Shown here: one piece after another, positions 32,062-43,462 of the stretch
Numbering within the stretch: position 1 is the first letter of the stretch
Layout of the letters: each line of letters opens with the position of its first letter
Assembly: GCA_016182045.1 (NCBI GenBank)
Contig: JACOYE010000013.1
Coordinates: 1 to 62,628, forward strand
Length of the DNA stretch: 62,628 bases
Direction of reading: 5' to 3'
Origin: Candidatus Microgenomates bacterium
Lineage (GTDB): Bacteria; Patescibacteriota; Microgenomatia; Daviesbacterales; UBA10151
Notes under the pieces: generated by a model
Databases searched by the model: none
What the model was told of the DNA's origin: nothing
What the model saw: only the letters and a program-made list of their open reading frames with translations
Made by a program: the position numbers and the translations under genes

Positions 32062-32159
32062 CATAAGCATGCATAAAATTCATTCTGTTTCTAATAATCA
32101 TTTAGCTGATAGTTTTTCTTTGTTTGATTTTACACCAATCCTCATCTATGATATTGATC

Positions 32160-32930
32160 ATGCAAAATTTAATAAAATATAAAGATCTTTACTGGCAGCT
32201 TACCTTTAGGGAAATAAATGCAAGGTACAAACAATCTGTCCTAGGATATGCCTGGGCTATTATTGTTCCCTTGATGAATCTAATTGTTCTGAGTATTGTT
32301 TTCTCATATCTTTTTAGAGTACCTACAGGTAATATCCCTTATCCAATATTTCTATTTGTAGCCTTAGTTCCCTGGACTTTTTTCTCAAATTCTCTAGTTG
32401 CAGCCACAGGCAGTATTATGGAAAATGGCGCTTTAATCACTAAAGTAAAATTACCCCGAGAAATTATTCCCCTCTCAGCAATTGGTTCTAAATCAATTGA
32501 TTTAATATTGACCTTTTTAATTTTATTAGTACTTTTATTTATTTATAAAGTTGAATTTCATCAAACATTTATATTGGTTCCTTTTATTTTTATTTTTCAG
32601 CTTACCTTTATGGTAGGAGTGGCTTTTTTTCTGTCTGCCACTAATGTATTTTTTAGAGATATTGGCAATGTCTTAGGTATTTTTTTAACAATTTGGATGT
32701 ATTTAACTCCGGTTATCTACTCCCCGCAGATGATTCCTGATAACCTTAAGCTTCTTTTTTATCTAAATCCGATGACATCCATTATTAATGCTTATAGAGA
32801 TACCATACTATATGGCAACTTACCAAATTTTGCCCAAATGTCCTATGTGATTTTTATTTCTGGCTTACTTTTAGTTTTAGGATATCTTTATTTTAAAAAG
32901 AGATCTAAACAATTTGCTGATGTGATATGA
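32160..32930 (+). CDS. wzm: ABC-2 polysaccharide exporter permease Wzm
   Basis: REINARYKQSVLGYAW, PYPIFLF, FFRDIG, TPVIYS, LNPMT. Start may be 32124. Confidence 0.92.
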   Translation: MQNLIKYKDLYWQLTFREINARYKQSVLGYAWAIIVPLMNLIVLSIVFSYLFRVPTGNIPYPIFLFVALVPWTFFSNSLVAATGSIMENGALITKVKLPREIIPLSAIGSKSIDLILTFLILLVLLFIYKVEFHQTFILVPFIFIFQLTFMVGVAFFLSATNVFFRDIGNVLGIFLTIWMYLTPVIYSPQMIPDNLKLLFYLNPMTSIINAYRDTILYGNLPNFAQMSYVIFISGLLLVLGYLYFKKRSKQFADVI

Positions 32931-33652
32931 AACCTATTATTAAGTTAAGTCGGGTCAGTAAAAAATATAGAAGAGGTCAAAGATTACTTTTAAAACAAGC
33001 CATCCTCGATTTTTTTAAGCCCCAGAGAGAAGAAGATTTTTGGGCATTAAAAGATGTTTCATTTAATGTGATGAGAGGAGAAGTATTGGGAATTATAGGT
33101 GCTAACGGTTCTGGTAAAAGTACCATCCTTAAACTGATGGCGGAAGTAATTTTTCCCACCAAAGGAGAAGTTGAAGTTAATGGGAAAATTAGTCCTTTAA
33201 TAGAACTTGGGGCTGGTTTTCACCCAGAATTAACTGGTCGGGAAAATATTTATCTTAATGGAACTATTTTAGGTCTAACTACCAATCAGATAGATGAAAA
33301 ATTCGATAGCATTGTTAAATTTGCCCAGCTGGAAGAGTTTATAGATACTGCTGTCAAACATTATTCTTCCGGAATGTATATGAGATTGGGCTTTGCTATC
33401 GCCATCCATGTTGATCCGGACATACTTCTGGTTGATGAAATTTTGGCGGTGGGGGATATCGCATTTCAAAAAAAATGTTTAGATAAAATGAAATCCTTCC
33501 ATGAGATGGGAGTAACCATAGTGATTATTTCTCATGCCCTGGATTTAATTCAAACTTTTTGTCAAAGAGTAATCCTGCTTCAGAATGGAGTAGTGGTAAC
33601 TTCAGGTAGTCCTCAAAAGGTAATAGAGAAATATAGAAAAATAATGAACTAA
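32927..33652 (+). CDS. wzt: ABC polysaccharide exporter ATPase Wzt
   Basis: FWALKDVSF, GANGSGKST, YSSGM, LLVDE, SH. Confidence 0.94.
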   Translation: MKPIIKLSRVSKKYRRGQRLLLKQAILDFFKPQREEDFWALKDVSFNVMRGEVLGIIGANGSGKSTILKLMAEVIFPTKGEVEVNGKISPLIELGAGFHPELTGRENIYLNGTILGLTTNQIDEKFDSIVKFAQLEEFIDTAVKHYSSGMYMRLGFAIAIHVDPDILLVDEILAVGDIAFQKKCLDKMKSFHEMGVTIVIISHALDLIQTFCQRVILLQNGVVVTSGSPQKVIEKYRKIMN

Positions 33653-35523
33653 TGTTAAGCGAGTTTAAAAGACTTTCTAAAATTGCATATCATCATCCCA
33701 GTAAAATTTTCAAAGCAGTCTATGTGTTACTTTGGCAGGGTCCCAAAGTCTTTAGACAAAAAGTAAGAAGACAAGATATATTACAAGATTATAATGCCTA
33801 TATTAATACTCAGTATTTAAAATGGTTTCAAAAAAATTATCCTTCAAAGCAGGAGTTTAGGAAACAGCAAGCTATAAAATTTAAATATCAGCCTAAAATT
33901 TCTATCATTACTCCCACTTTCAATACGCCGGAAAAATTTTTGAGAGATTGTATAGAGTCTGTTCTAAATCAAAGTTATTTTAACTGGGAGCTTTGTATTT
34001 GTGATGATGCCTCAACTAATTCAAATGTAAAAAAAATTATCAAAAATTATGCCAAGAAAGATAGTAGAATTAAATATATTTTCCGAGAGACTAATGGTCA
34101 CATTAGCGAAGCTTCTAATTCTGCCTTAAGTTTAGCTACAGGTGAATTTATAGCTTTTTTGGATCACGACGATTTACTTTGGCCAAATGCCTTATTTGAA
34201 ATTGTTAAGATTTTAAATAAAAATCCTTGGTTAGATTTTATTTACTCTGATGAAGATAAATTGGATGAGGATGGTAAAATCCACTTAGAGCCATTTTTTA
34301 AACCTGATTGGAGTCCTGATTATTTAAGATCTATAAATTATATTACTCACTTGTCTGTAATTAGAAAATTACTTATAAACAAAGTTGGAGGATTTAGGAG
34401 AGGTTTTGAGGGTGCCCAAGATTGGGATTTGTTTTTAAGAGTTTCCAGGCAGACTTCAAAAATTTCACACATCAGCAAAATTTTGTACAGTTGGAGAAAA
34501 TCTCCTCTTTCTTCGGCTTCTGAAAAATCAATATCAAATATTAAAAATTTTGCTTTTAAGATACAAAAAAAAGTTTTAGAGGATGATATGGTTGCCAGAG
34601 GATATAAAGGAAAAGTCATATCTACTAAATACTTAGGGCTTTGGAGAGTTAAATACAATATTTTAGGAAAACCCTTAGTTTCGATAATTATTCCAACCAA
34701 AGATAATTTTTATTATTTAAATAGCTGTTTAGAATTAATACTTACTAAAACATCTTATCCAAATTATCAACTAATTATTGTTGACGGGGGATCAAAAGAT
34801 AAAAAAATTTGGGACTTATATAAAGTAATACAAAAAAAGCATCAAAAAACAAAAATAATTAAATGGACTCAGGACTTTAACTTTTCTTCTGTTTGTAATT
34901 TTGGTGAAAGGTTTAGTGACGGAGAATACTTACTTTTTTTAAATGATGATACTCAGATAAAAAGTAATGATTGGATTGAATCAATGCTGGAGCATGCCCA
35001 AAGGGAGGAAGTTGGAAGCGTGGGAGTTAAACTACTTTTTCCAAATAATAGAATTCAACATGCAGGTATTGTGCTTGGAATTGCTGGAGGATTAGTCAGA
35101 AAAGGAGTAGCTGGCCATCCTTTTAAAAATTTTTATGATAAAAAAATAAATGCAGGTTATTCAAAAATAGTTGATGCAATAAGAAATTGTTCAGCGGTCA
35201 CAGCAGCTTGTTTAATGATCTCAAAAGATAAATTTAGAAAAGTAGGGGGGTTTGATCCTAAATTTAAAATTGCTTTTAATGATGTTGATTTCGGACTGAG
35301 GATTTTGGAAAAGGATTTATTAAATCTTTATACACCTTTCACAGTTTTATTTCATCATGAATCAGTTTCTGTGGGAAAGGTAGGGGAAGGAAATAGGGAT
35401 GCAAAAGAATTTTTAAATGAGGTTAGATTAATGCATCAGCGCTGGGGAGAGAGATTACTCAGAGACCCTTATTATAACGTAAACCTTACCCTAAAAAATG
35501 AAGAATATACTTTAAATATATGA
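33652..35523 (+). CDS. Double-domain GT2 glycosyltransferase
   Basis: Two GT-A modules: ICDDAS...FLDHDD and IVDGGS...LNDDT, then VTAACL, FNDVD. Confidence 0.9.
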   Translation: MLSEFKRLSKIAYHHPSKIFKAVYVLLWQGPKVFRQKVRRQDILQDYNAYINTQYLKWFQKNYPSKQEFRKQQAIKFKYQPKISIITPTFNTPEKFLRDCIESVLNQSYFNWELCICDDASTNSNVKKIIKNYAKKDSRIKYIFRETNGHISEASNSALSLATGEFIAFLDHDDLLWPNALFEIVKILNKNPWLDFIYSDEDKLDEDGKIHLEPFFKPDWSPDYLRSINYITHLSVIRKLLINKVGGFRRGFEGAQDWDLFLRVSRQTSKISHISKILYSWRKSPLSSASEKSISNIKNFAFKIQKKVLEDDMVARGYKGKVISTKYLGLWRVKYNILGKPLVSIIIPTKDNFYYLNSCLELILTKTSYPNYQLIIVDGGSKDKKIWDLYKVIQKKHQKTKIIKWTQDFNFSSVCNFGERFSDGEYLLFLNDDTQIKSNDWIESMLEHAQREEVGSVGVKLLFPNNRIQHAGIVLGIAGGLVRKGVAGHPFKNFYDKKINAGYSKIVDAIRNCSAVTAACLMISKDKFRKVGGFDPKFKIAFNDVDFGLRILEKDLLNLYTPFTVLFHHESVSVGKVGEGNRDAKEFLNEVRLMHQRWGERLLRDPYYNVNLTLKNEEYTLNI

Positions 35524-36494
35524 GTAAACCGCTAGTTTCTGTAATAATTCCAAATTGGAATGGAGTGGAATTATTAAAATTGAGTCTGCCATCTCTTGAG
35601 AAACAATCCTTTAAGAGTTTGGAAATCATTATTGTTGATAATGGTTCAACAGATAACTCTATAAAATATATAAATGATACTTTTCCGAAAGTGAAAGTTA
35701 TTAAGCTGGAGAGAAATTATGGTTTTGCCAAGGCTGTCAATATTGGAATAAAGAAAACAAACGGCAAATATATAATATTTTTAAACAATGACACAGAAAT
35801 AGATAAAAGTTGTATTCAATATCTGGTGCAAGCTGTTCTTAGGAAAAGTAATGTTGGTTTTATTCAGGCAAAAAGTCTGAATTTTAAAAAAAGAAATATC
35901 ATCGATAATGCCTCGGATACAATTGATGCTGTCGGTCATTTGAAAACATATGGTTTAGGAGAGAATGATGGTCCTAAATTTAGATCAGCCGGGTATATTT
36001 TTTTAGCATCAGGAAACGGCACTCTTTTTAAAAGAGAAGTCTTTGATCAGGTGGGTCTTTTTGATGAGGATTATTTTTTCTATATGGAGGATGCGGATTT
36101 CTGTTTACGGGCCCAACTTAAAGGATTTAAGGGTTGGTTTGAGCCAAAGGCAAAAATTTATCATTTAAGAGGAGCAACTTCCTCAAAAAATCCCCAATTT
36201 TTTGACTGTCAGGTTTTTCGCAATATGACCATGACAATAATTAAAGATTTTCCCAATAAATTATTACTGAAAGATTTTAACTTGCTAAAAATTATTTTGG
36301 TCCACTTAAATACAATTAAATATTTATTTTCTAAAGGTTATTTTTTCTCTGTTCTAAAATCTGAATGGGATATAGTTAGGAGTTTAGGAAAACTTCTTAA
36401 AAAAAGGAAGGAAATTCAGTCGAGTAAGATAGTGGATGATCAATATATAATTGAAAATATTGCCCCCAAAAATTTTTTACCTAAATTATATTGA
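35520..36494 (+). CDS. GT2 family glycosyltransferase
   Basis: IPNWNG, VDNGSTD, NYGFAKAVN, LNNDT, YMEDADF. Confidence 0.92.
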   Translation: MSKPLVSVIIPNWNGVELLKLSLPSLEKQSFKSLEIIIVDNGSTDNSIKYINDTFPKVKVIKLERNYGFAKAVNIGIKKTNGKYIIFLNNDTEIDKSCIQYLVQAVLRKSNVGFIQAKSLNFKKRNIIDNASDTIDAVGHLKTYGLGENDGPKFRSAGYIFLASGNGTLFKREVFDQVGLFDEDYFFYMEDADFCLRAQLKGFKGWFEPKAKIYHLRGATSSKNPQFFDCQVFRNMTMTIIKDFPNKLLLKDFNLLKIILVHLNTIKYLFSKGYFFSVLKSEWDIVRSLGKLLKKRKEIQSSKIVDDQYIIENIAPKNFLPKLY

Positions 36495-36509: not shown

Positions 36510-37238
36510 CTAAGGAGTGAAGATGACCCTTCTGACAATCTCAGATGAATTTGAGGCTTGATCGATGGCTTTTATAGTAAAAATATTCTCACCGTCATTT
36601 AACGATTGATCGGTTGAGAAATTACCGTCTTTATCCACAATTACCCTGCTGTCATTGATGAAAACTTTTGCTTCCGCCTCAGTTTTACCTGTCAATTTTA
36701 ATCTTCTCTCCCCTGAAATTTGTTTACCATCTTCAGGTTCTGTCACTTCCAGAAGAGGTTTTTCATTATCAAAAATGATTTTGATGGTTTTAGATGATAA
36801 ACTTTCTTTCCCCTTCTCATCAACGGTCTTTCCCCAGATGTTGTTTGTCCCTAAAGCCAGTTCGACATTTTCTATCAGAAAACTGCCATCAGATTGGGCA
36901 TTGACTTCCTTTGTTGATCCCTCATCCAAGTAAAGCCTGACTAGAATGTTTGGAGAGGCGTAACCTTGGATATTGATCTGGGGACTGTTGGTTGCCTCAT
37001 AGGGAATATTGAAAACTGGGGGAGCTAAGCTAGCGTTTTCAGAAGATTCTAAGACAAGTTTTGCGGGAGGTTTCACCAGGCTGTTGATATAACCTAAAGC
37101 ATTTATAAAAAATGGTAATATCCAGCTGATAGTGGCGTAGATTAAGAAAATTACCAGAATTAGAGTGAGGATAAAGTTTCTTTTGCTTTTTCTGGCAAGC
37201 TTGCGGGTTGATCTCCTAGAACGGTATCTGTAGGCCAT
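36510..37238 (-). CDS. Membrane-anchored protein with two bacterial Ig-like domains
   Basis: Basic N-terminus, TM, then repeats with G.N.I..KA.D..GN patterns. Confidence 0.8.
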   Translation of the reverse strand: MAYRYRSRRSTRKLARKSKRNFILTLILVIFLIYATISWILPFFINALGYINSLVKPPAKLVLESSENASLAPPVFNIPYEATNSPQINIQGYASPNILVRLYLDEGSTKEVNAQSDGSFLIENVELALGTNNIWGKTVDEKGKESLSSKTIKIIFDNEKPLLEVTEPEDGKQISGERRLKLTGKTEAEAKVFINDSRVIVDKDGNFSTDQSLNDGENIFTIKAIDQASNSSEIVRRVIFTP

Positions 37239-37281: not shown

Positions 37282-37352
37282 GCGGGATTAGTACACCGGT
37301 AGTATGCCACCTTCCCAAGGTGGAGAAGCCAGTTCGATTCTGGTATCCCGCT
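37282..37352 (+). tRNA. tRNA-Gly(CCC)
   Basis: GCGGGAT/ATCCCGC acceptor, loop TT-CCC-AA, TTCGATT T-loop. Confidence 0.95.
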
Positions 37353-37370
37353 CACCACGTCTGACTTAGC

Positions 37371-39863
37371 TCACAACTTTTCCAAAGCATCATGCATTTG
37401 CTTTGTGGATTCTTCATATGGGGCATCTTTAGCAAATGTTAAGGGTTTGCCAACTTTAATCCAGATCCTTTTTCTTTTTTTGGGTAGATTTTCGATAAAC
37501 TTTCCCTCCATAGATGGGAAAATCTCCATATATTTGGGATCAATTTTTATAGGGACAACCGGGACTTGGCATTCTGTTGCCAAGAGGCCAATACCAGGTT
37601 TAAATTCCAAAAGGCTACCATCCTCTGAAAAGGTTCCTTCGGGAGCCATCAGAATGGAAAATCCTCTATCTAAAAATTCACCTGTTAACTCTAAGGATGC
37701 TTTGACTTTTTCTTCTTTATCAAAAGGAAAAGCGGCGCCAAAGATTTCTATAAAAAAGCGGCGCCACTCTTTCCAAAGATCAGCACTTACCACAATGACC
37801 AGTCTTTCCCTTATCTTTTGTGGTAACACCCGTAACACACACAATCCGTCCATAACGGCGATGTGATTAAAATAAAAAATTGCGGGAAGTTTTAAATCTT
37901 TTAAGTTTTCCTTACCCGATACTTCTATAGGAACAAAGATGTTATGGAGCGGGAATACCAGAAGTTTTTGCAGCAATGTTCGGATTATCATTGTTTGAGA
38001 AGCATAGAGAAATTCATTTATGGGAATTTCCTCAATAGTTTCAGGCGCATCTTTAATTAATCGCCTAAGATCTTTTAAAGAAGTTTGCGGGCTAATTTTT
38101 ATCTCAGAAATTGCCACTGCAAATTTTTGTTCAATTGAAGACAAAAGTTCCACTCTGCCCAAGGAGTCAATTTTAAGGTCGGTGCCTAAGGTAGACGTTT
38201 CTTTTATTTTTGAAGAAGAGATATGGGTGATTTGGGAAATTATGGAAATCAGCTGGTCTTGTGATTTAACCTCTTCTGATCTCTTGTCGCCTTTATGGCT
38301 TCTCGAAGAGACGGCCAGCGTCACTTTTTTTCTATCAATTTTTAAGATCGGAGTTCTTGGGAAATCTTCACCTTGCCATATACTCCATTCCAAAATTTGC
38401 TCATGGGAAGCAAGTTTTTGATTGATATCGCGGATGATTGTATCAAGTTTACTGGGATATTTGGTAATGATTGCAGCATGAACTGTCTCGCCTTCTTCTC
38501 GTTTTACACCAATAACACAAGATTCTGAAACCAAAGGATGAGCATTTAATTTTTTCTCCAAATCCTCTGGATAAACTTTTCTTCCATCAGGTAGGACAAT
38601 TCTGAAAGCCTCACGGCCCGTGATGTATAAATAGCCATTCTTATCAAGCTTCCCAACATCGCCTGTTCGGTACCAGCCATCGCAAAAGGCTGCTTTGGTT
38701 TTTTCCTCATCCTCAAAATAGCCGAGAGAAATGTTAGGACCATGTGCTTCAATCTCATGAGTTTCTGGATTTATCCGGACTTCCATCTTTGGTAGGATTT
38801 TACCCACAGACCCCAAGTGCCTGGCGGATGGAGTATTGATTGTTAAAGCCGCCGTTGTCTCGGTCGCCCCATATCCTTCAAAAATCTCAACTCCCAATGC
38901 CTCCCATTTTTGGGCCAGTTTTAGATCAAGGGGAGCAGAACCAGAGCCAAAAAACTTTAACTTTCCACCCAAATTTTGGTGAATCTTTGAAAAAAGAAGA
39001 CGCCTTAGAAAGACGGGTAAGATTGGTGCGATACGGTTTGCCATTTGAAACTGTGCTGTTTTGCCATCTTCAGCCACTCGCCGCTCGATTCCATTCATCA
39101 ACAGTCGAAGGACTTGCGGTACCAGAGCAACAGAGGTGATTTTGCTTTTGCGCATGGTCTTCAGAATAGTCAAAGTATTGATCCTTTCAAGATAGGTTAC
39201 TGTAATGCCGGATTGGAATGGTGCCAAAAAATCAACCACTTGCTCAAAAGCATGGGATAAAGGTAATAAAGATAAGGCATGCCACTCTTTTTTAAATGGG
39301 AAAGCTTTTGTGAGCGCTTCAACATCGGATAAGAAATTGCCATGAGTTAACATTACTCCTTTGGGAGTACCTGTGGTACCAGAAGTAAAAGCAATTTCTG
39401 CCAAATCATTTTGGTAGGTAGCTGGTAGTGGGTAGTGGATAGTGGGTAGTAAATGAACAAGGTCGACCAGATCTTCTAAACGAAAACTTTCTTTAACTAA
39501 TCTTCCGAAACTACCAGGGATAAATTTTCCCTTAAAACCTATCTGACATTTAGCCTTTTCCAAAAAGATTTTGAGTGTTTCTTCTGTAGTGCGGATATCA
39601 ATAGGGACTGCAACAGCCCCCATAAGCCATATACCAAAGTACAAAATAGGGTACTCGGGCATATTTGGGGCCCAAATAACCACTTTATCTCCCTTTTTAA
39701 GACCCTTTTGCTGTAAAAATGTGGCTGTTTTGAGTGAGAGTAGATAGATATCCTCAAAACTAAATCTTTGTGTTCTCAAACCACGTTTAATCTGATAGGC
39801 AATTCTATCTTGATATTTTTGCGAATTTTCCTTTAAAAACTCACCAAGATTTTGCATTTTCAT
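37371..39863 (-). CDS. Acyl-AMP ligase + acyl carrier + PlsC-type acyltransferase fusion (Aas-like, reversed domain order)
   Basis: FTSGTTGTPKG, GYGATE and YRTGD (ANL). IDSLGRVEL (ACP Ser). FNHIAVMD and PEGT (acyltransferase). Confidence 0.9.
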   Translation of the reverse strand: MKMQNLGEFLKENSQKYQDRIAYQIKRGLRTQRFSFEDIYLLSLKTATFLQQKGLKKGDKVVIWAPNMPEYPILYFGIWLMGAVAVPIDIRTTEETLKIFLEKAKCQIGFKGKFIPGSFGRLVKESFRLEDLVDLVHLLPTIHYPLPATYQNDLAEIAFTSGTTGTPKGVMLTHGNFLSDVEALTKAFPFKKEWHALSLLPLSHAFEQVVDFLAPFQSGITVTYLERINTLTILKTMRKSKITSVALVPQVLRLLMNGIERRVAEDGKTAQFQMANRIAPILPVFLRRLLFSKIHQNLGGKLKFFGSGSAPLDLKLAQKWEALGVEIFEGYGATETTAALTINTPSARHLGSVGKILPKMEVRINPETHEIEAHGPNISLGYFEDEEKTKAAFCDGWYRTGDVGKLDKNGYLYITGREAFRIVLPDGRKVYPEDLEKKLNAHPLVSESCVIGVKREEGETVHAAIITKYPSKLDTIIRDINQKLASHEQILEWSIWQGEDFPRTPILKIDRKKVTLAVSSRSHKGDKRSEEVKSQDQLISIISQITHISSSKIKETSTLGTDLKIDSLGRVELLSSIEQKFAVAISEIKISPQTSLKDLRRLIKDAPETIEEIPINEFLYASQTMIIRTLLQKLLVFPLHNIFVPIEVSGKENLKDLKLPAIFYFNHIAVMDGLCVLRVLPQKIRERLVIVVSADLWKEWRRFFIEIFGAAFPFDKEEKVKASLELTGEFLDRGFSILMAPEGTFSEDGSLLEFKPGIGLLATECQVPVVPIKIDPKYMEIFPSMEGKFIENLPKKRKRIWIKVGKPLTFAKDAPYEESTKQMHDALEKL
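39423..39450 (-). repeat. Heptamer array (TAGTGGG-like x4) inside the ligase CDS
   Basis: TGGTAGTGGGTAGTGGATAGTGGGTAGT, encoding LPTIHYPLP. Confidence 0.7.
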
Positions 39864-41167
39864 TTTAGCTCATCTGATAATTTATAGCCCTTGATGAAAA
39901 TTAAGAATCCAATGAGGGTGGCAAAACCTGCAATTGGTCCAATCAGACGAATGCCTAATGAATGAGTAGTGGTGGCTCCGAAGAGTGATAGAGAGGTGCC
40001 AAATATTAAACTTGATAAAGCAAAGGAAAATTTTTGCAAGGTATTTTGCATGCCATAATATATGGCTTCACGTCTAAGTCCTGTTTTTGTTTCGTCATAA
40101 TCTATCACATCCGCCAAAATGGCATTAGGGAAAACAAATTGGCCGGCAAGAGCTATTCCAATTAGAGCTACCAAAATAAATGTTTGAATAATCGGGGTGG
40201 TTAGGGGAATAAGTCCTACAAAAGCAAGCAGTGGAAAAAGCAGGGAAAGGGTAAACATGGAGCGGGAATAGGCCCATTTTTTACCATAGATTTTTGCCAA
40301 AAGATTGTGAGCTGGTAAAGAGATGACCATGCTGGTTAAGAGTATGCCCATAAACAGCGCCACCCATCCTTCAGAAAGATTAAGAACGATTGTGGTATAA
40401 AAGGGTACCAAAGCGGTTAAAAGATTAAGACCCAAAGAGAAAAGGATAAAAGCAAAAGAGAATACTAAAAATTGTTTGTTTCTTAAGGTAGCAATTAATG
40501 CCTGATAAAGATTTAAATTTTTGACAATTTTCCGCTCGAGGAGAATTTTGTCAATTTTCTTCCTGATTCCCAAAATGGCAATCCAAAAGGCAATAAGTCC
40601 GATAATTCCCAAACTTGCGCCCATTGCCAAAAAACCAAACCGCTGGATTAACAGAGCGGATCCAACAAGACCTATCCCAGCCCCAATTACCCCGAAGAGC
40701 ACTCTCCATGCAGAGGTTGAGACCCGATCTTTGGATGTTTTAGCAATCTCTGGCAAAATGCCCTCATAAGGTGCGGATACTATGGTATAAGTTAAGAAGA
40801 AAAACTGTAGGACAATGAAAAAATAAATGGCATTTATGGTGGTCTGATTTGGGGTTGGAGAAAGCCACAACAGAAAAAAACTTAAAGCTAAAAAGGGTGC
40901 CCCCAAAAATATATAAGGGAATCTTCTGCCCCAGCGGGATTTTGTTCTATCAGATAAATGACCAATTAAAGGATCATCAAAAGCTTCAATAAATCTACCG
41001 ATACCCAAAAGAACTCCTAAAAGGCCCAGTGGAATTAACGCCTTATTTGGATCACCCCTGCCTGCCCAAAAGAAGATCAACCAAGCAGTTAGGGCCTGAA
41101 AAGTGACATTTTCCCCCAAGCCACCTATGGCAAAAATTATTTGATCTTTAACTGGTAGACTTTTCAT
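39860..41167 (-). CDS. MFS transporter, GPH/MelB (MFS_2) family
   Basis: EAFDDPLIGHLSDRTKSRWGRRFPYI and ADVIDYDETKTGLRREAIYYG. About 12 TM segments. Confidence 0.92.
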   Translation of the reverse strand: MKSLPVKDQIIFAIGGLGENVTFQALTAWLIFFWAGRGDPNKALIPLGLLGVLLGIGRFIEAFDDPLIGHLSDRTKSRWGRRFPYIFLGAPFLALSFFLLWLSPTPNQTTINAIYFFIVLQFFFLTYTIVSAPYEGILPEIAKTSKDRVSTSAWRVLFGVIGAGIGLVGSALLIQRFGFLAMGASLGIIGLIAFWIAILGIRKKIDKILLERKIVKNLNLYQALIATLRNKQFLVFSFAFILFSLGLNLLTALVPFYTTIVLNLSEGWVALFMGILLTSMVISLPAHNLLAKIYGKKWAYSRSMFTLSLLFPLLAFVGLIPLTTPIIQTFILVALIGIALAGQFVFPNAILADVIDYDETKTGLRREAIYYGMQNTLQKFSFALSSLIFGTSLSLFGATTTHSLGIRLIGPIAGFATLIGFLIFIKGYKLSDELK

Positions 41168-41522
41168 CTAATATGGCCACAAATTGGGCAATAACATAAT
41201 TGCCGTCGTGAGAAATGGATAGGGAAGAATTGAAAATTGAAAATTGCCCGCTTCGCCGCGAGGCGAGAAAATTGAAAATTTTAGCTTGGGGTGCACCATC
41301 TGGTTGGTGGGTAATCTGAATATTATGCCATGAGTTTGGAGGGAGGGATAAGGCTTTTATTGCTGCTTCCTTAGCTGCGAAAATTCCAGCCAGATGCTCA
41401 AGTTGTTGATTTTCCAGTTCTTTTGCCAGGAAAACTCTTCTTAAAAAATTTTCTCCGCCATTTTTGAGAGCATTTTTAAATCGTGGTAGATATATCAGAT
41501 CAACTCCTGTTAATATTTTCAT
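41148..41522 (-). CDS. acpS: Holo-ACP synthase
   Basis: GVDL, LAGIFAAKEAAIKAL, GAP, SISHDGNYVIA. Confidence 0.92.
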   Translation of the reverse strand: MKILTGVDLIYLPRFKNALKNGGENFLRRVFLAKELENQQLEHLAGIFAAKEAAIKALSLPPNSWHNIQITHQPDGAPQAKIFNFLASRRSGQFSIFNSSLSISHDGNYVIAQFVAILDEKSTS

Positions 41523-41563
41523 CTCCCTACATTATGCCATTTTGAGGTAAAATATGAAATCAG

Positions 41564-41634
41564 GCCGAAGTAGTTTAGTGGTAAAACATTACTTTCGTAA
41601 AGTAACATCGTGGGTTCAATTCCCACCTTCGGCT
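41564..41634 (+). tRNA. tRNA-Thr(CGT)
   Basis: GCCGAAG/CTTCGGC acceptor, loop TT-CGT-AA. Confidence 0.95.
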
Positions 41635-41662
41635 CACCACAATCAGTTTACATGATTGTGGC

Positions 41663-43462
41663 TCATCTGCTGGTCTCTATTAAGGCTTGTTTGGCAAGTT
41701 GGTTTTGGGGATCTTTGGAAAGCACTTGGGAAAAGACCTCCTTGGCTTTATTTTTATCCCCCATTGTTAAATAAACAATCCCCAAATTATTCCACAGGTT
41801 TAAATTTTTTTGATTAACAGAGAGAGCTTTTTGGATATTCTCAAGTGCTAAATCATATTTTTTCTGAGTAAAATAAATTGCGGCAATATTTTGATAAGAT
41901 TGCCAGAGATTAGGATTAAATTCGGTGGCCTTCTTATAATTTTCCAAAGCTCTTTCCTGATCATTTAGCTCCACATAGGTGTTGGCCAAATTATGATAAG
42001 CATCGGCGTAGTTTGGTTTTAACATAATGGCTGTTTGAAATTCCTGCAAGGCTTTTTGTTTATCACCCCATCGTCCGTAAACATCTCCCAAATTATTATG
42101 GGTATTGGGTGAGGAAGGTGAGGTTTTACCTGTGGCAATCCAAAGATTGTCCTCGTTTTTCCAATCAATATTTCTAATAATGGTTCTTACTGAAAGTACA
42201 ATTACGCAAACTACCACCAATATATAAATAAATGCTGACAATTGTTTTTTTAATCTAACTAAGAGGGATAATACTAGGGCAACTATGGTAAAAATGCCTA
42301 CGGAGGGAAGGTATAAATACCTTTCTGCCACAATCCAATTTAGTCTAAAGGGAGTCAAAGTAGGAGCTAGGCTAATTGAGAAAAACGACAGCCAGAAAAA
42401 GACAGATCTATTTTTTATGAAAGTTACCAGGAATGCCACAAATAATAGAATCGTTATCCCGGCTCTTATACTAAAGGAGGGGATAGAAAATTGCAGTTCA
42501 GAGTGATAGAGAGTTAAAGTTTTTGGCCAAAACAACAGTTCAAAATAAGAACTTATGGCTGTAGGTAATAATAAAAAGATATTATCCACCCCTCTTTCCT
42601 GATAATGGACGGATTGTAAGGTGCTGACACGACTGGGTAAGGAGATAAGGGAGAAAAAAAGGTAAAAAATAGTTATCACCAAATACGGTATAGTTTTTTT
42701 CCAGTTTTTTTTCAGATTACCAAATGATATTTCCCAAACAGGAAAAATTAGAAAAAGAGCCAAAGGCATTTGAGGGTGAGAGGCGAAGGTAAACAAAAAA
42801 AAGATAATGGAAAAGTAATAATATTTTCTTTTTCTATCTGAAAGAAGATAAAATAGTAAAGAGAGTAAAAAGAAAAAAGCATATTGAGTATATTGCCCAC
42901 CCGATATCCAAACTACAGCTTCTGCAATGGCTGGATGAACGGCAAAAAGAGCAGCTGCCGTAAATGCAACTAAAGATTTTTGATAAATTTTTCTGACTAT
43001 GAAAAATATTAATACTGCAGAGCCAAAATGGAATACGAAATTACCAAATCTGAAAAAGGCAGGATTTAAATCTCCAATATGAAAAGTAATCCAATAAATA
43101 ATATGCCTTATTGCACCGGTTGGGTAAGTACTGATGATATGTCCAAAATCACCAATTAGTGGGTTATTTTTAATCTCTGCGATATCATCTGAGACAAAGG
43201 CATTATTTAAGGCATTTGTGTAAGTTATGAGAATTAAAATAGCTAAAATTAATATATAAATCCAACTTTTCCAAGTCCATCTCTTAGTCCCTTCTGTTTC
43301 CCGAGAGTATGATAGTTTACTTGTTAATTTTTCTTCACCCCAGCGTTTTCTGATATATTCTGAAATAATTTTTTCATCAACCTTTAAATAGTTGGCCATC
43401 TCATAAAGGGATGAATCTCTGATATGTTTTTTGATATATTTTTTCTGGTCGTGGGAAAGCAT
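41663..43462 (-). CDS. TMTC-like GT-C membrane glycosyltransferase with C-terminal TPRs
   Basis: NAFVSDD luminal loop, ALFAVHPAIAEAV, AERYLYLPS, RNIDWKNE, and TPRs such as AHYNL-like DAYHNLA. Confidence 0.85.
   Translation of the reverse strand: MLSHDQKKYIKKHIRDSSLYEMANYLKVDEKIISEYIRKRWGEEKLTSKLSYSRETEGTKRWTWKSWIYILILAILILITYTNALNNAFVSDDIAEIKNNPLIGDFGHIISTYPTGAIRHIIYWITFHIGDLNPAFFRFGNFVFHFGSAVLIFFIVRKIYQKSLVAFTAAALFAVHPAIAEAVVWISGGQYTQYAFFFLLSLLFYLLSDRKRKYYYFSIIFFLFTFASHPQMPLALFLIFPVWEISFGNLKKNWKKTIPYLVITIFYLFFSLISLPSRVSTLQSVHYQERGVDNIFLLLPTAISSYFELLFWPKTLTLYHSELQFSIPSFSIRAGITILLFVAFLVTFIKNRSVFFWLSFFSISLAPTLTPFRLNWIVAERYLYLPSVGIFTIVALVLSLLVRLKKQLSAFIYILVVVCVIVLSVRTIIRNIDWKNEDNLWIATGKTSPSSPNTHNNLGDVYGRWGDKQKALQEFQTAIMLKPNYADAYHNLANTYVELNDQERALENYKKATEFNPNLWQSYQNIAAIYFTQKKYDLALENIQKALSVNQKNLNLWNNLGIVYLTMGDKNKAKEVFSQVLSKDPQNQLAKQALIETSR

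Follow-up and report, generated by a model that had tools for sequence, protein, structure and literature searches.

A candidate operon for lysolipid uptake and reacylation in a Microgenomates bacterium: acpS, an MFS_2 transporter and a ligase-carrier-acyltransferase fusion

How do bacteria of the candidate phyla radiation (CPR, Patescibacteria) obtain their membrane lipids? This is an open question. CPR cells contain ordinary fatty-acyl glycerolipids with unusually many lysolipids, and these lipids are probably taken from neighbours; the CPR genomes studied carry no fatty-acid synthesis and no enzymes that produce or use acyl carrier protein (ACP) (PMC7242380). Patescibacteria are also reported to have gained acpP and lysophospholipase genes horizontally. 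We analysed a 62,628-nt stretch of a Candidatus Microgenomates bacterium (contig JACOYE010000013.1, the whole stretch being called the window here), in which three minus-strand genes at 37371-41522 encode a phosphopantetheinyl transferase (PPTase) of the AcpS type, a transporter of the MFS_2 family and a tri-domain fusion enzyme. We tentatively assign this cassette as an LplT/Aas-like operon that would take up and reacylate exogenous lysolipid. The cassette gives a defined set of genes, expressible in E. coli, that could serve as one route to the lipids of these organisms. Its genes and domains are as follows.

41148..41522, minus strand: acpS, group I (AcpS-type) 4'-phosphopantetheinyl transferase, 124 aa (Pfam ACPS, TIGR00556, GVD and AAKEA motifs)
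39860..41167, minus strand: MFS_2 gene, 12-helix transporter of the glycoside-pentoside-hexuronide (GPH)/MFS_2 family, 435 aa (Pfam MFS_2, AlphaFold 2 (AF2) model, Foldseek)
37371..39863, minus strand: fusion gene, 830 aa, fatty-acid adenylating (ANL) domain, carrier (ACP) domain and PlsC-type acyltransferase domain
38322..39833, minus strand: ANL domain of the fusion (AMP-binding and C-terminal subdomain, residues 11-514; Pfam 2.2e-66; P-loop, YGATE, TGD, GR, A10 lysine)
38067..38258, minus strand: carrier (PP-binding) domain, residues 536-599 (Pfam 2.7e-06; S567 codon at 38163-38165)
37542..37928, minus strand: PlsC-family acyltransferase domain, residues 646-774 (Pfam PF01553, 2e-17; HX4D and PEG)

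The open reading frame (ORF) listing places all three genes on one strand, with an overlap of 20 nt between acpS and the MFS_2 gene and of 4 nt (ATGA) between the MFS_2 and fusion genes. In the protein database entry the fusion begins at the second Met (828 aa), and translational coupling is kept with either start; residue positions below follow the 830-aa ORF. The original prediction, which was made from the letters of the DNA, described three overlapping, co-oriented genes with complete motifs. Coordinates, Pfam domains and catalytic motifs all agree with that description, and the Pfam E-values lie well past anything that chance would give.

In the fusion, Pfam finds AMP-binding (residues 11-382), AMP-binding_C (421-514), PP-binding and PF01553 Acyltransferase (63.7 bits, cut-off 23). 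The ANL motifs include the P-loop TSGTTGTPKG (160-169), YGATE (331-335) and the A10 lysine within PILKIDRKK (505-513). The attachment serine S567 of the carrier lies in DSLGRVELL, and D-S-L is invariant in the fusion family. The acyltransferase domain has NHIAVMD (HX4D, 666-672) and PEG (block III, 741-743). The ANL domain resembles enzymes that act on fatty acids: it is similar to long-chain fatty-acid ligases (PRK06187, 1.5e-75), and its best structural match is FadD13 of M. tuberculosis. It also matches the NCBIfam model PRK08633 (7.7e-59, 199 bits). The carrier domain matches ACP models of the fatty-acid-synthesis type at 1e-7 to 1e-5. Homologs of the fusion are annotated in their sources as 'AMP-binding protein' or 'long-chain acyl-CoA synthetase'. 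A Foldseek search with the whole model returned ANL enzymes only and was uninformative on the acyltransferase domain.

The isolated acyltransferase domain was compared with all NCBIfam models. Its best match was a segment (positions 412-591) of PRK08633, the acyl-[ACP]--phospholipid O-acyltransferase model, at 6.9e-20 and 70 bits. Lower scores came from the generic AGPAT model (42 bits), the 719-position E. coli Aas model PRK08043 (31 bits) and the PlsC model of E. coli (20 bits), and there was a weak match to GlsA/aminolipid acyltransferase (16 bits). The domain also matches the PlsC structure 5kym (2.7e-05). On these scores it appears to be Aas-like. No curated NCBIfam model reaches its cut-off with the fusion; for example, PRK08633 gives 199 bits with the whole protein (cut-off 1221) and PRK08043 about 30 bits with the acyltransferase region (cut-off 886). 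The AF2 model of the fusion (pLDDT 83, pTM 0.81) shows a long amphipathic/hydrophobic helix at about 620-641 before the acyltransferase fold. A hydrophobic stretch at 625-648, the sole strongly hydrophobic one outside the ANL core, coincides with this helix, which is consistent with peripheral membrane association.

The ANL-ACP-acyltransferase order is present in more than 100 full-length homologs, and the architecture with DSL, HX4D and PEG is kept in about 90 loci from genomes and metagenomes. The nearest named homolog is from Candidatus Curtissbacteria (Microgenomates group, Patescibacteria); more distant members occur in Chloroflexota, Acidobacteriota and others. When contigs were scanned with the full-length fusion alignment, the full-length fusions among the matches listed were L002 and L011 (37%) and a few near 27%, the rest being mostly unrelated acyl-CoA ligases. 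One clade with 42-46% identity (Chloroflexota/Acidobacteriota-like) has lost HX4D and carries NYQGPY in place of NHxxxxD (L087:8001-10493, L132 and proteins P0079-P0119; alignment columns about 745-760). These fusions keep the DSL serine, PEG and full length, and L087 still has an MFS_2 neighbour. The acyltransferase domain of this clade may be inactive or work by another mechanism.

The acpS product is a single domain of 124 aa. It matches Pfam ACPS at 5.5e-12 (PF01648, 46.1 bits, cut-off 25) and TIGR00556 at 64.9 bits, above the cut-off of 45.35; it falls under the cut-off of the stricter acpS equivalog TIGR00516 (46.6 vs 59.8 bits). The motifs GVD (D8, the N-terminal Asp) and the AAKEA helix (K51, E52) are kept. 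A short size of about 120 aa, a Mg-binding Asp near the N-terminus and a Glu/Lys helix are features of B. subtilis AcpS. Of the 15 close loci (fusion at least 50% identical to that of the window) in which the region can be read, 12 have an AcpS homolog upstream of the fusion; among about 75 distant fusion loci, only 2 have one nearby. AcpS stands beside the fusion in CPR and Margulisiibacteriota loci, and none is beside it in Ktedonobacteria (genomes of 5-9 Mb). The private AcpS tracks the lineages that likely need one. Its presence with CPR/Margulisiibacteriota fusions and its absence beside the fusion in large free-living genomes is the pattern expected of an enzyme that serves one carrier, and it fits a PPTase dedicated to the carrier domain in cells without a housekeeping enzyme.

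The transporter belongs to MFS_2 (2.1e-61; PF13347, 208 bits, cut-off 27), with a secondary match to MFS_1 (7e-14). It scores 181 bits against TIGR00792 (gph), below the cut-off of 231, which marks a divergent GPH subfamily. GPH-type models alone were found in the NCBIfam scan; no LplT-family model matched at E<=0.01. The AF2 model has high confidence (pLDDT 94.4) and a full set of helices. The nearest solved structures are those of two MFS_2 members, the animal Na+-dependent lysophosphatidylcholine symporter MFSD2A and the bacterial Na+/melibiose carrier MelB, and identity to either is 17-22%. A single-sequence search of solved structures gave MFSD2A at 2e-20 vs MelB at 3e-14. A profile of the cassette transporters gave 1.5e-27 (100 bits) and 1.8e-23 (87 bits), respectively. 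In Foldseek, MelB was the top match by E-value (5e-14, TM 0.82), with MFSD2A at 2e-13 (TM 0.84-0.85).

Residues were mapped by HMMER alignments and the residue lists in PMC10013850, and 11 cassette transporters were compared. The cation site is kept as R58, E61 (Asp in some relatives), D65, T128, R155 and K379, which correspond to R52/D55/D59/T121/R149/K377 of MelB and R90/D93/D97/T159/R186/K436 of MFSD2A. Across the set there is little or no variation at E61, D65, T128 and K379, the counterparts of the MelB cation-site residues D55, D59, T121 and K377 on transmembrane helices 2, 4 and 11. In every cassette member, N20, S131 and E135 stand where MelB has its sugar residues D19, D124 and W128, and the score against the MelB equivalog PRK10429 is 108.9 bits (cut-off 456). 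The invariant glutamate E135 is found in neither reference protein. The motif FPNAILADVID in transmembrane helix 10 (TM10) resembles LLPWSMLPDVID of MFSD2A. The transporter is thus predicted to be a cation-coupled GPH-family carrier and not a MelB-type galactoside permease.

Homologs of the transporter were collected as 340 cluster representatives at E<1e-30, and their gene contexts were sampled. The contexts are mixed: three of them are P0130, P0122 and P0126, and two more were uninformative. P0130 joins in one chain an MFS_2 homolog (39% identity) and a PF01553 acyltransferase that has HX4D. In P0122, the homolog shows translational coupling with a gene of the DedA/VTT lipid-transport family. 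The Rosetta-stone fusion P0130 and the DedA/VTT coupling tie the transporter to acyl transfer. Two side observations were made among the relatives. At L172:6297-8335, a DedA/VTT gene ends at the start base of an MFS_2 homolog with 46% identity to that of the window. Since DedA proteins have been linked to lipid flipping, this gives the transporter subfamily a second lipid-flavoured context. P0151 (671 aa) is an unusual transporter-enzyme fusion in which an MFS_2 homolog (40% identity) is followed by an NTP_transf_3/IspD-like nucleotidyltransferase domain at the C-terminus.

Is the three-gene arrangement kept elsewhere? There are 17 distinct close loci with informative upstream DNA, the window included; organism names are known for a few loci only. 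The MFS_2 gene lies directly upstream of the fusion, or with an esterase gene alone between them, in 12 of the 17: the window, L081 (Curtissbacteria), L084 (Margulisiibacteriota), L085, L089, L090, L091, L093, L094, L095, L098 and L101. Fusions of these cassette relatives are 60-72% identical to that of the window. The MFS_2-fusion arrangement spans at least three phyla and reaches down to 44% identity, at which L087 has an MFS_2 gene directly before the fusion. Across loci, identity to the window proteins rises and falls together for the fusion, MFS and AcpS (r 0.93 with L087, 0.71 without it), which indicates that the three genes travel as a unit. The remaining five close loci have no MFS_2 gene upstream. 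They are two Ktedonobacteria, L097, and L086 and L102, in which AcpS lies directly before the fusion. The synteny that the original prediction proposed to test holds for most close loci, Curtissbacteria and Margulisiibacteriota included, and is absent from these five and, L087 excepted, from the distant ones discussed below.

In the two Ktedonobacteria, L083 (Dictyobacter alpinus) and L088 (brp13), the fusion is 58-60% identical to that of the window, and neither AcpS nor MFS_2 is found beside it. These fusions are about as close to the window's as the Curtissbacteria and Margulisiibacteriota copies are. This points to horizontal transfer, in either direction, between Chloroflexota and CPR. 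A second conserved context occurs in 14 distant loci (the clade at about 37% identity), where a gene of the metallo-beta-lactamase fold (Pfam Lactamase_B, 6e-33) is translationally coupled upstream. The loci with this context, in which the gene ends at or overlaps the fusion start, are listed as L002, L103-L108, L118, L125, L128, L129, L135-L137 and L153. In some of them an acyl-CoA dehydrogenase gene or a DAGK_cat lipid-kinase-like gene is nearby.

Most close relatives add two genes to the cassette. One encodes an alpha/beta-hydrolase of about 290 aa and lies between the MFS and fusion genes. The other encodes a BD-FAE-type hydrolase of about 330 aa and lies before acpS or convergently downstream. 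Each hydrolase carries a nucleophile elbow, GFSxG, and one hydrophobic segment at its N-terminus, and the two are read as putative membrane-anchored or secreted serine esterases. Such esterases fit a scavenging role. The window cassette would be a minimal version of the module, with the esterases absent. In L090 (6559-7707), the MFS_2 and esterase genes, tightly packed elsewhere, stand about 1.1 kb apart, and the gap holds two small ORFs of 156 and 73 aa.

How would the cassette work? In the scheme that we propose, AcpS would attach phosphopantetheine to Ser567 of the fusion's own carrier domain. The N-terminal ANL domain would activate a free long-chain fatty acid with ATP and load it as a thioester on the carrier in cis; this self-loading is very likely. 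The MFS_2 transporter, probably cation-coupled, would fetch a lyso-glycerolipid, either a lysophospholipid or a lyso-glycolipid, from outside or from the outer leaflet and deliver it on the cytoplasmic side. The C-terminal PlsC-type domain, associated with the membrane, would then pass on the acyl group to give a diacyl lipid. Gene order, domains, motifs and the recurrence of the cassette are observed; the substrates, the transport direction and the physiological role are inferences. A lyso-glycerolipid is the likely acceptor, and lipid flipping by the MFS protein, with a scavenging role for the whole, is plausible. In relatives with anchored esterases, the lysolipid and the free fatty acid would be made from foreign diacyl lipid. 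With its own carrier and its own priming enzyme, the cassette would work in a cell without ACP. The module would need neither free ACP nor a housekeeping PPTase, and it would suit an organism without fatty-acid synthesis. The link to reacylation that the original prediction drew has gained the Aas-type best match, the P0130 fusion and the anchored esterases of relatives. Its transport half stands less well, as the lipid substrate of the MFS protein is not demonstrable by these comparisons.

Several observations weigh against this assignment. Sequence and fold fail to separate the transporter from sugar carriers. The original prediction had proposed a model of the transporter against MFSD2A and MelB, and the outcome does not discriminate between the two: the lead of MFSD2A is slight (100 vs 87 bits) and the fold comparison is a tie. 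MFSD2A-specific features are a central E312 and a hydrophobic patch F65/F66/F329/L333 (PMC10013850). In the window transporter E312 is not conserved (T251 takes its place), and F65/F66 align with A28/W29. A relative with 40% identity (P0126, L171) is followed by an MGH1-like glycoside hydrolase gene. The window cassette is without both esterase genes, and remnants of them were looked for there and none found. The acceptor may equally be lysophosphatidic acid or glycerol-3-phosphate. The presumed absence of fatty-acid synthesis from this genome is taken from the nearest named homolog and the general literature. The fusion family is not specific to CPR, as free-living Ktedonobacteria carry the fusion alone, and about 75 distant loci (26-43% identity) have no MFS_2 neighbour. 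Since the fusion occurs without MFS_2 in Ktedonobacteria, L086, L097, L102 and nearly all distant loci, the transporter is not obligatory for the enzyme.

Four other explanations were weighed. The one that survives best, although we consider it unlikely, is that the fusion is a self-contained PlsC/PlsB surrogate which uses scavenged fatty acids to acylate lysophosphatidic acid or glycerol-3-phosphate of intracellular origin for de novo phospholipid assembly, with the MFS protein importing a polar precursor (glycerophosphodiester, glycosylglycerol or sugar). The domain is of the PlsC family and matches the generic AGPAT model and the PlsC structure, but it clearly favours Aas-type over PlsC models (70 vs 42 and 20 bits). 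CPR genomes are reported with PlsY and PlsC and without ACP or PlsX, which leaves the acyl donor unexplained (PMC7242380). GPH members are mostly polar-solute symporters, and the 40% MFS relative adjoins a hydrolase of the glucosyl- or mannosyl-glycerate type; the sugar-binding residues of MelB, however, are replaced in the cassette. Many genomes also hold the fusion without an MFS neighbour. On the other hand, the P0130 fusion suggests that a substrate embedded in the membrane is handed over directly, as in LplT-Aas fusions, and anchored esterases in the operon make lysolipids a natural product for uptake.

Somewhat less probable is repair of the cell's own membrane, as by LplT/Aas in E. coli. 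Lysolipids that arise from endogenous acyl transfer or from attacking phospholipases would be reacylated, and no foreign lipid would be involved. The mechanism would be the same as in the scavenging assignment and the source of the substrate alone would differ. The LplT/Aas precedent, the lack of esterases in the window and the retention of the fusion by free-living Ktedonobacteria and Chloroflexota all agree with repair. It leaves unexplained the two extracytoplasmic esterases in the operon of most close relatives and the private AcpS that travels with the cassette.

An operon for making and exporting a specialised acylated surface molecule (acyl-sugar, glycolipid or aminolipid) appears improbable. 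Here the acceptor would not be a glycerolipid, the MFS protein would export the product or flip it outward, and the anchored hydrolases would be extracellular transacylases, alpha/beta-hydrolases being able to act as acyltransferases. Mycobacterial FadD-Pks-Pap-MmpL-Chp loci offer an analogy, and ElbD-like enzymes work in specialised lipid synthesis. PF01553 includes lyso-aminolipid acyltransferases, and a GlsA match was found, but this model lies far below the Aas models (16 vs 70 bits). In the window the cassette adjoins two GT2 glycosyltransferase genes and an ABC-2 polysaccharide-type exporter; these neighbours are not kept with the cassette in L081 and L084. The operon has no head-group or sugar-activating gene, and the symporter-type cation site of GPH importers is retained.

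That the MFS_2 protein is an ordinary sugar or glycoside symporter which shares the transcript and is functionally unlinked to the lipid enzymes is very improbable: Pfam and NCBIfam do place it in the GPH family, MelB is its top Foldseek match and one relative has a glycoside-hydrolase neighbour, but its gene lies between acpS and the fusion gene with overlapping reading frames and is kept there in at least three phyla, down to 44% identity, the cassette has no sugar-catabolic gene, three MelB sugar residues are replaced, the score for curated GPH is 181 vs 231 bits, and one homolog is fused to an acyltransferase (P0130).

The comparison with LplT/Aas shows both likenesses and differences. Coupling of LplT and Aas is established in E. 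coli, and single-chain LplT-Aas fusions exist (PMC11416262). As in that system, a single operon brings together an MFS gene and the gene of an enzyme with ANL and PlsC-type lysophospholipid acyltransferase domains, and transporter-acyltransferase fusions are found on both sides (P0130 here, LplT-Aas there; PMC11416262). The cassette transporter is GPH/MFS_2 while LplT is of the MFS_1 type, so that the prediction of a different MFS family is upheld by the NCBIfam scan. Also as predicted, the domain order is reversed. Aas has its acyltransferase at the N-terminus and its synthetase at the C-terminus, whereas the order here is ANL-ACP-acyltransferase and the C-terminal acyltransferase domain aligns with positions 16-154 of PRK08043, the N-terminal part of Aas. 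The cassette enzyme has a built-in carrier, whereas Aas uses free holo-ACP, and the operon adds a dedicated AcpS and, usually, two esterase genes.

The fusion itself has a known relative in ElbD of Myxococcus xanthus, which consists of FAR1-like, ACS, ACP and AGPAT parts. The ACS and ACP activities of ElbD were shown in vitro, with ACS loading its own ACP, and uncharacterised 'ElbD-like homologues' without the FAR1 domain were noted in other phyla (PMC9131029). The window fusion shares the ACS(ANL)-ACP-AGPAT-like order in one chain and is of this FAR-less kind. It differs from ElbD, which has an N-terminal FAR1-like reductase, as Pfam finds no NAD-binding or reductase domain in it. ElbD serves ether-lipid synthesis in the elbA-E operon, whereas the window fusion is found with acpS and MFS_2; the two were compared by description. 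An ether-lipid (ElbD) function was rejected because the fusion has no reductase domain. The tri-domain architecture is thus already known as FAR-less ElbD-like proteins, and the cassette with AcpS and MFS_2 appears to be new. In the literature on lysophospholipid or acyl-ACP synthetases of Patescibacteria/CPR and on the tri-domain fusion, we found no description of the cassette or of a bacterial MFS_2 lysolipid system.

Chlamydia trachomatis offers a further parallel. Its CT775, a lysophospholipid acyltransferase, and CT776 (AasC), an acyl-ACP synthetase, scavenge host lysolipids and fatty acids, and this Aas-derived pair, too, builds membrane from host lipids in a host-dependent bacterium of reduced genome (PMC5693948). 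Unlike the fusion, CT775 and CT776 are two separate proteins that use the cell's own ACP, and a dedicated transporter and PPTase are absent. Chlamydia has complete type II fatty-acid synthesis (FASII).

LplT/Aas has so far been reported in Gram-negative bacteria only, and its authors speculate on other MFS carriers such as MFSD2A (PMC11416262). The cassette would extend the LplT/Aas principle beyond Gram-negative bacteria, a point that the same authors left open (PMC11416262), and the large unannotated ANL-ACP-acyltransferase ('FAR-less ElbD-like') family would gain its first functional context. If the transporter moves lysolipids, the GPH family would gain its first lysolipid flippase from bacteria, and MFSD2A-type flipping a simple bacterial model. 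A wider proposal, which we regard as doubtful, is that of a portable lipid-transplant module. Esterases would clip foreign lipid, an MFSD2A-like GPH carrier would flip the lysolipid and the self-primed enzyme would reacylate it. A subset of CPR (Microgenomates group) without fatty-acid synthesis or ACP, together with Margulisiibacteriota, would build diacyl membranes in this way from host or necromass lipid, and the module would have moved horizontally among Chloroflexota, Margulisiibacteriota and CPR.

The window is an ordinary bacterial chromosome segment with a dcw cluster and genes for DnaE, IleRS, GatB, ParB, signal peptidase, an ABC-2 exporter and two GT2 glycosyltransferases. The features next to the cassette are listed below.

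41531..41558, minus strand: promoter-like site TTCATA-16-CATAAT with TG extension (consensus scan; pattern match only)
37282..37353, plus strand: tRNA-Gly(CCC), cassette boundary marker with no cassette function claimed
41564..41635, plus strand: tRNA-Thr(CGU), cassette boundary marker

The promoter-like site sits between tRNA-Thr and acpS, and a GGGAG ribosome-binding site is found just 5' of the acpS start. The count of promoter-like sites in the region does not exceed the shuffled expectation. The cassette is transcribed opposite to the prevailing gene direction of the window and is bracketed by the two opposite-strand tRNA genes. In L085 the same cassette is found in the same place, within a collinear block from ParB to peptidase M48. 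PolX of the window and L085 is 70% identical, and the cassette proteins are 62-69% identical. Because the position is the same in L085 and PolX is 70% identical, the cassette appears to be inherited and not a recent insertion. A recent tRNA-targeted insertion was rejected on the shared collinear block, the housekeeping-level identity and an unremarkable GC content.

At 32124-36494 and 36510-37238 the cassette is adjoined by an ABC-2 type exporter pair, the two GT2 glycosyltransferases and a secreted protein with Big/Glucodextran_B domains. This block looks like one for cell-surface polysaccharide; it is collinear in L085 and unlinked to the cassette in L081 and L084. On the other side (41663-43462, minus strand) lies the gene of a 599-aa protein whose N-terminal part has many transmembrane segments and whose C-terminal part has TPR repeats (TPR_1, 1e-30); this gene takes the place held by the BD-FAE esterase gene in L085.

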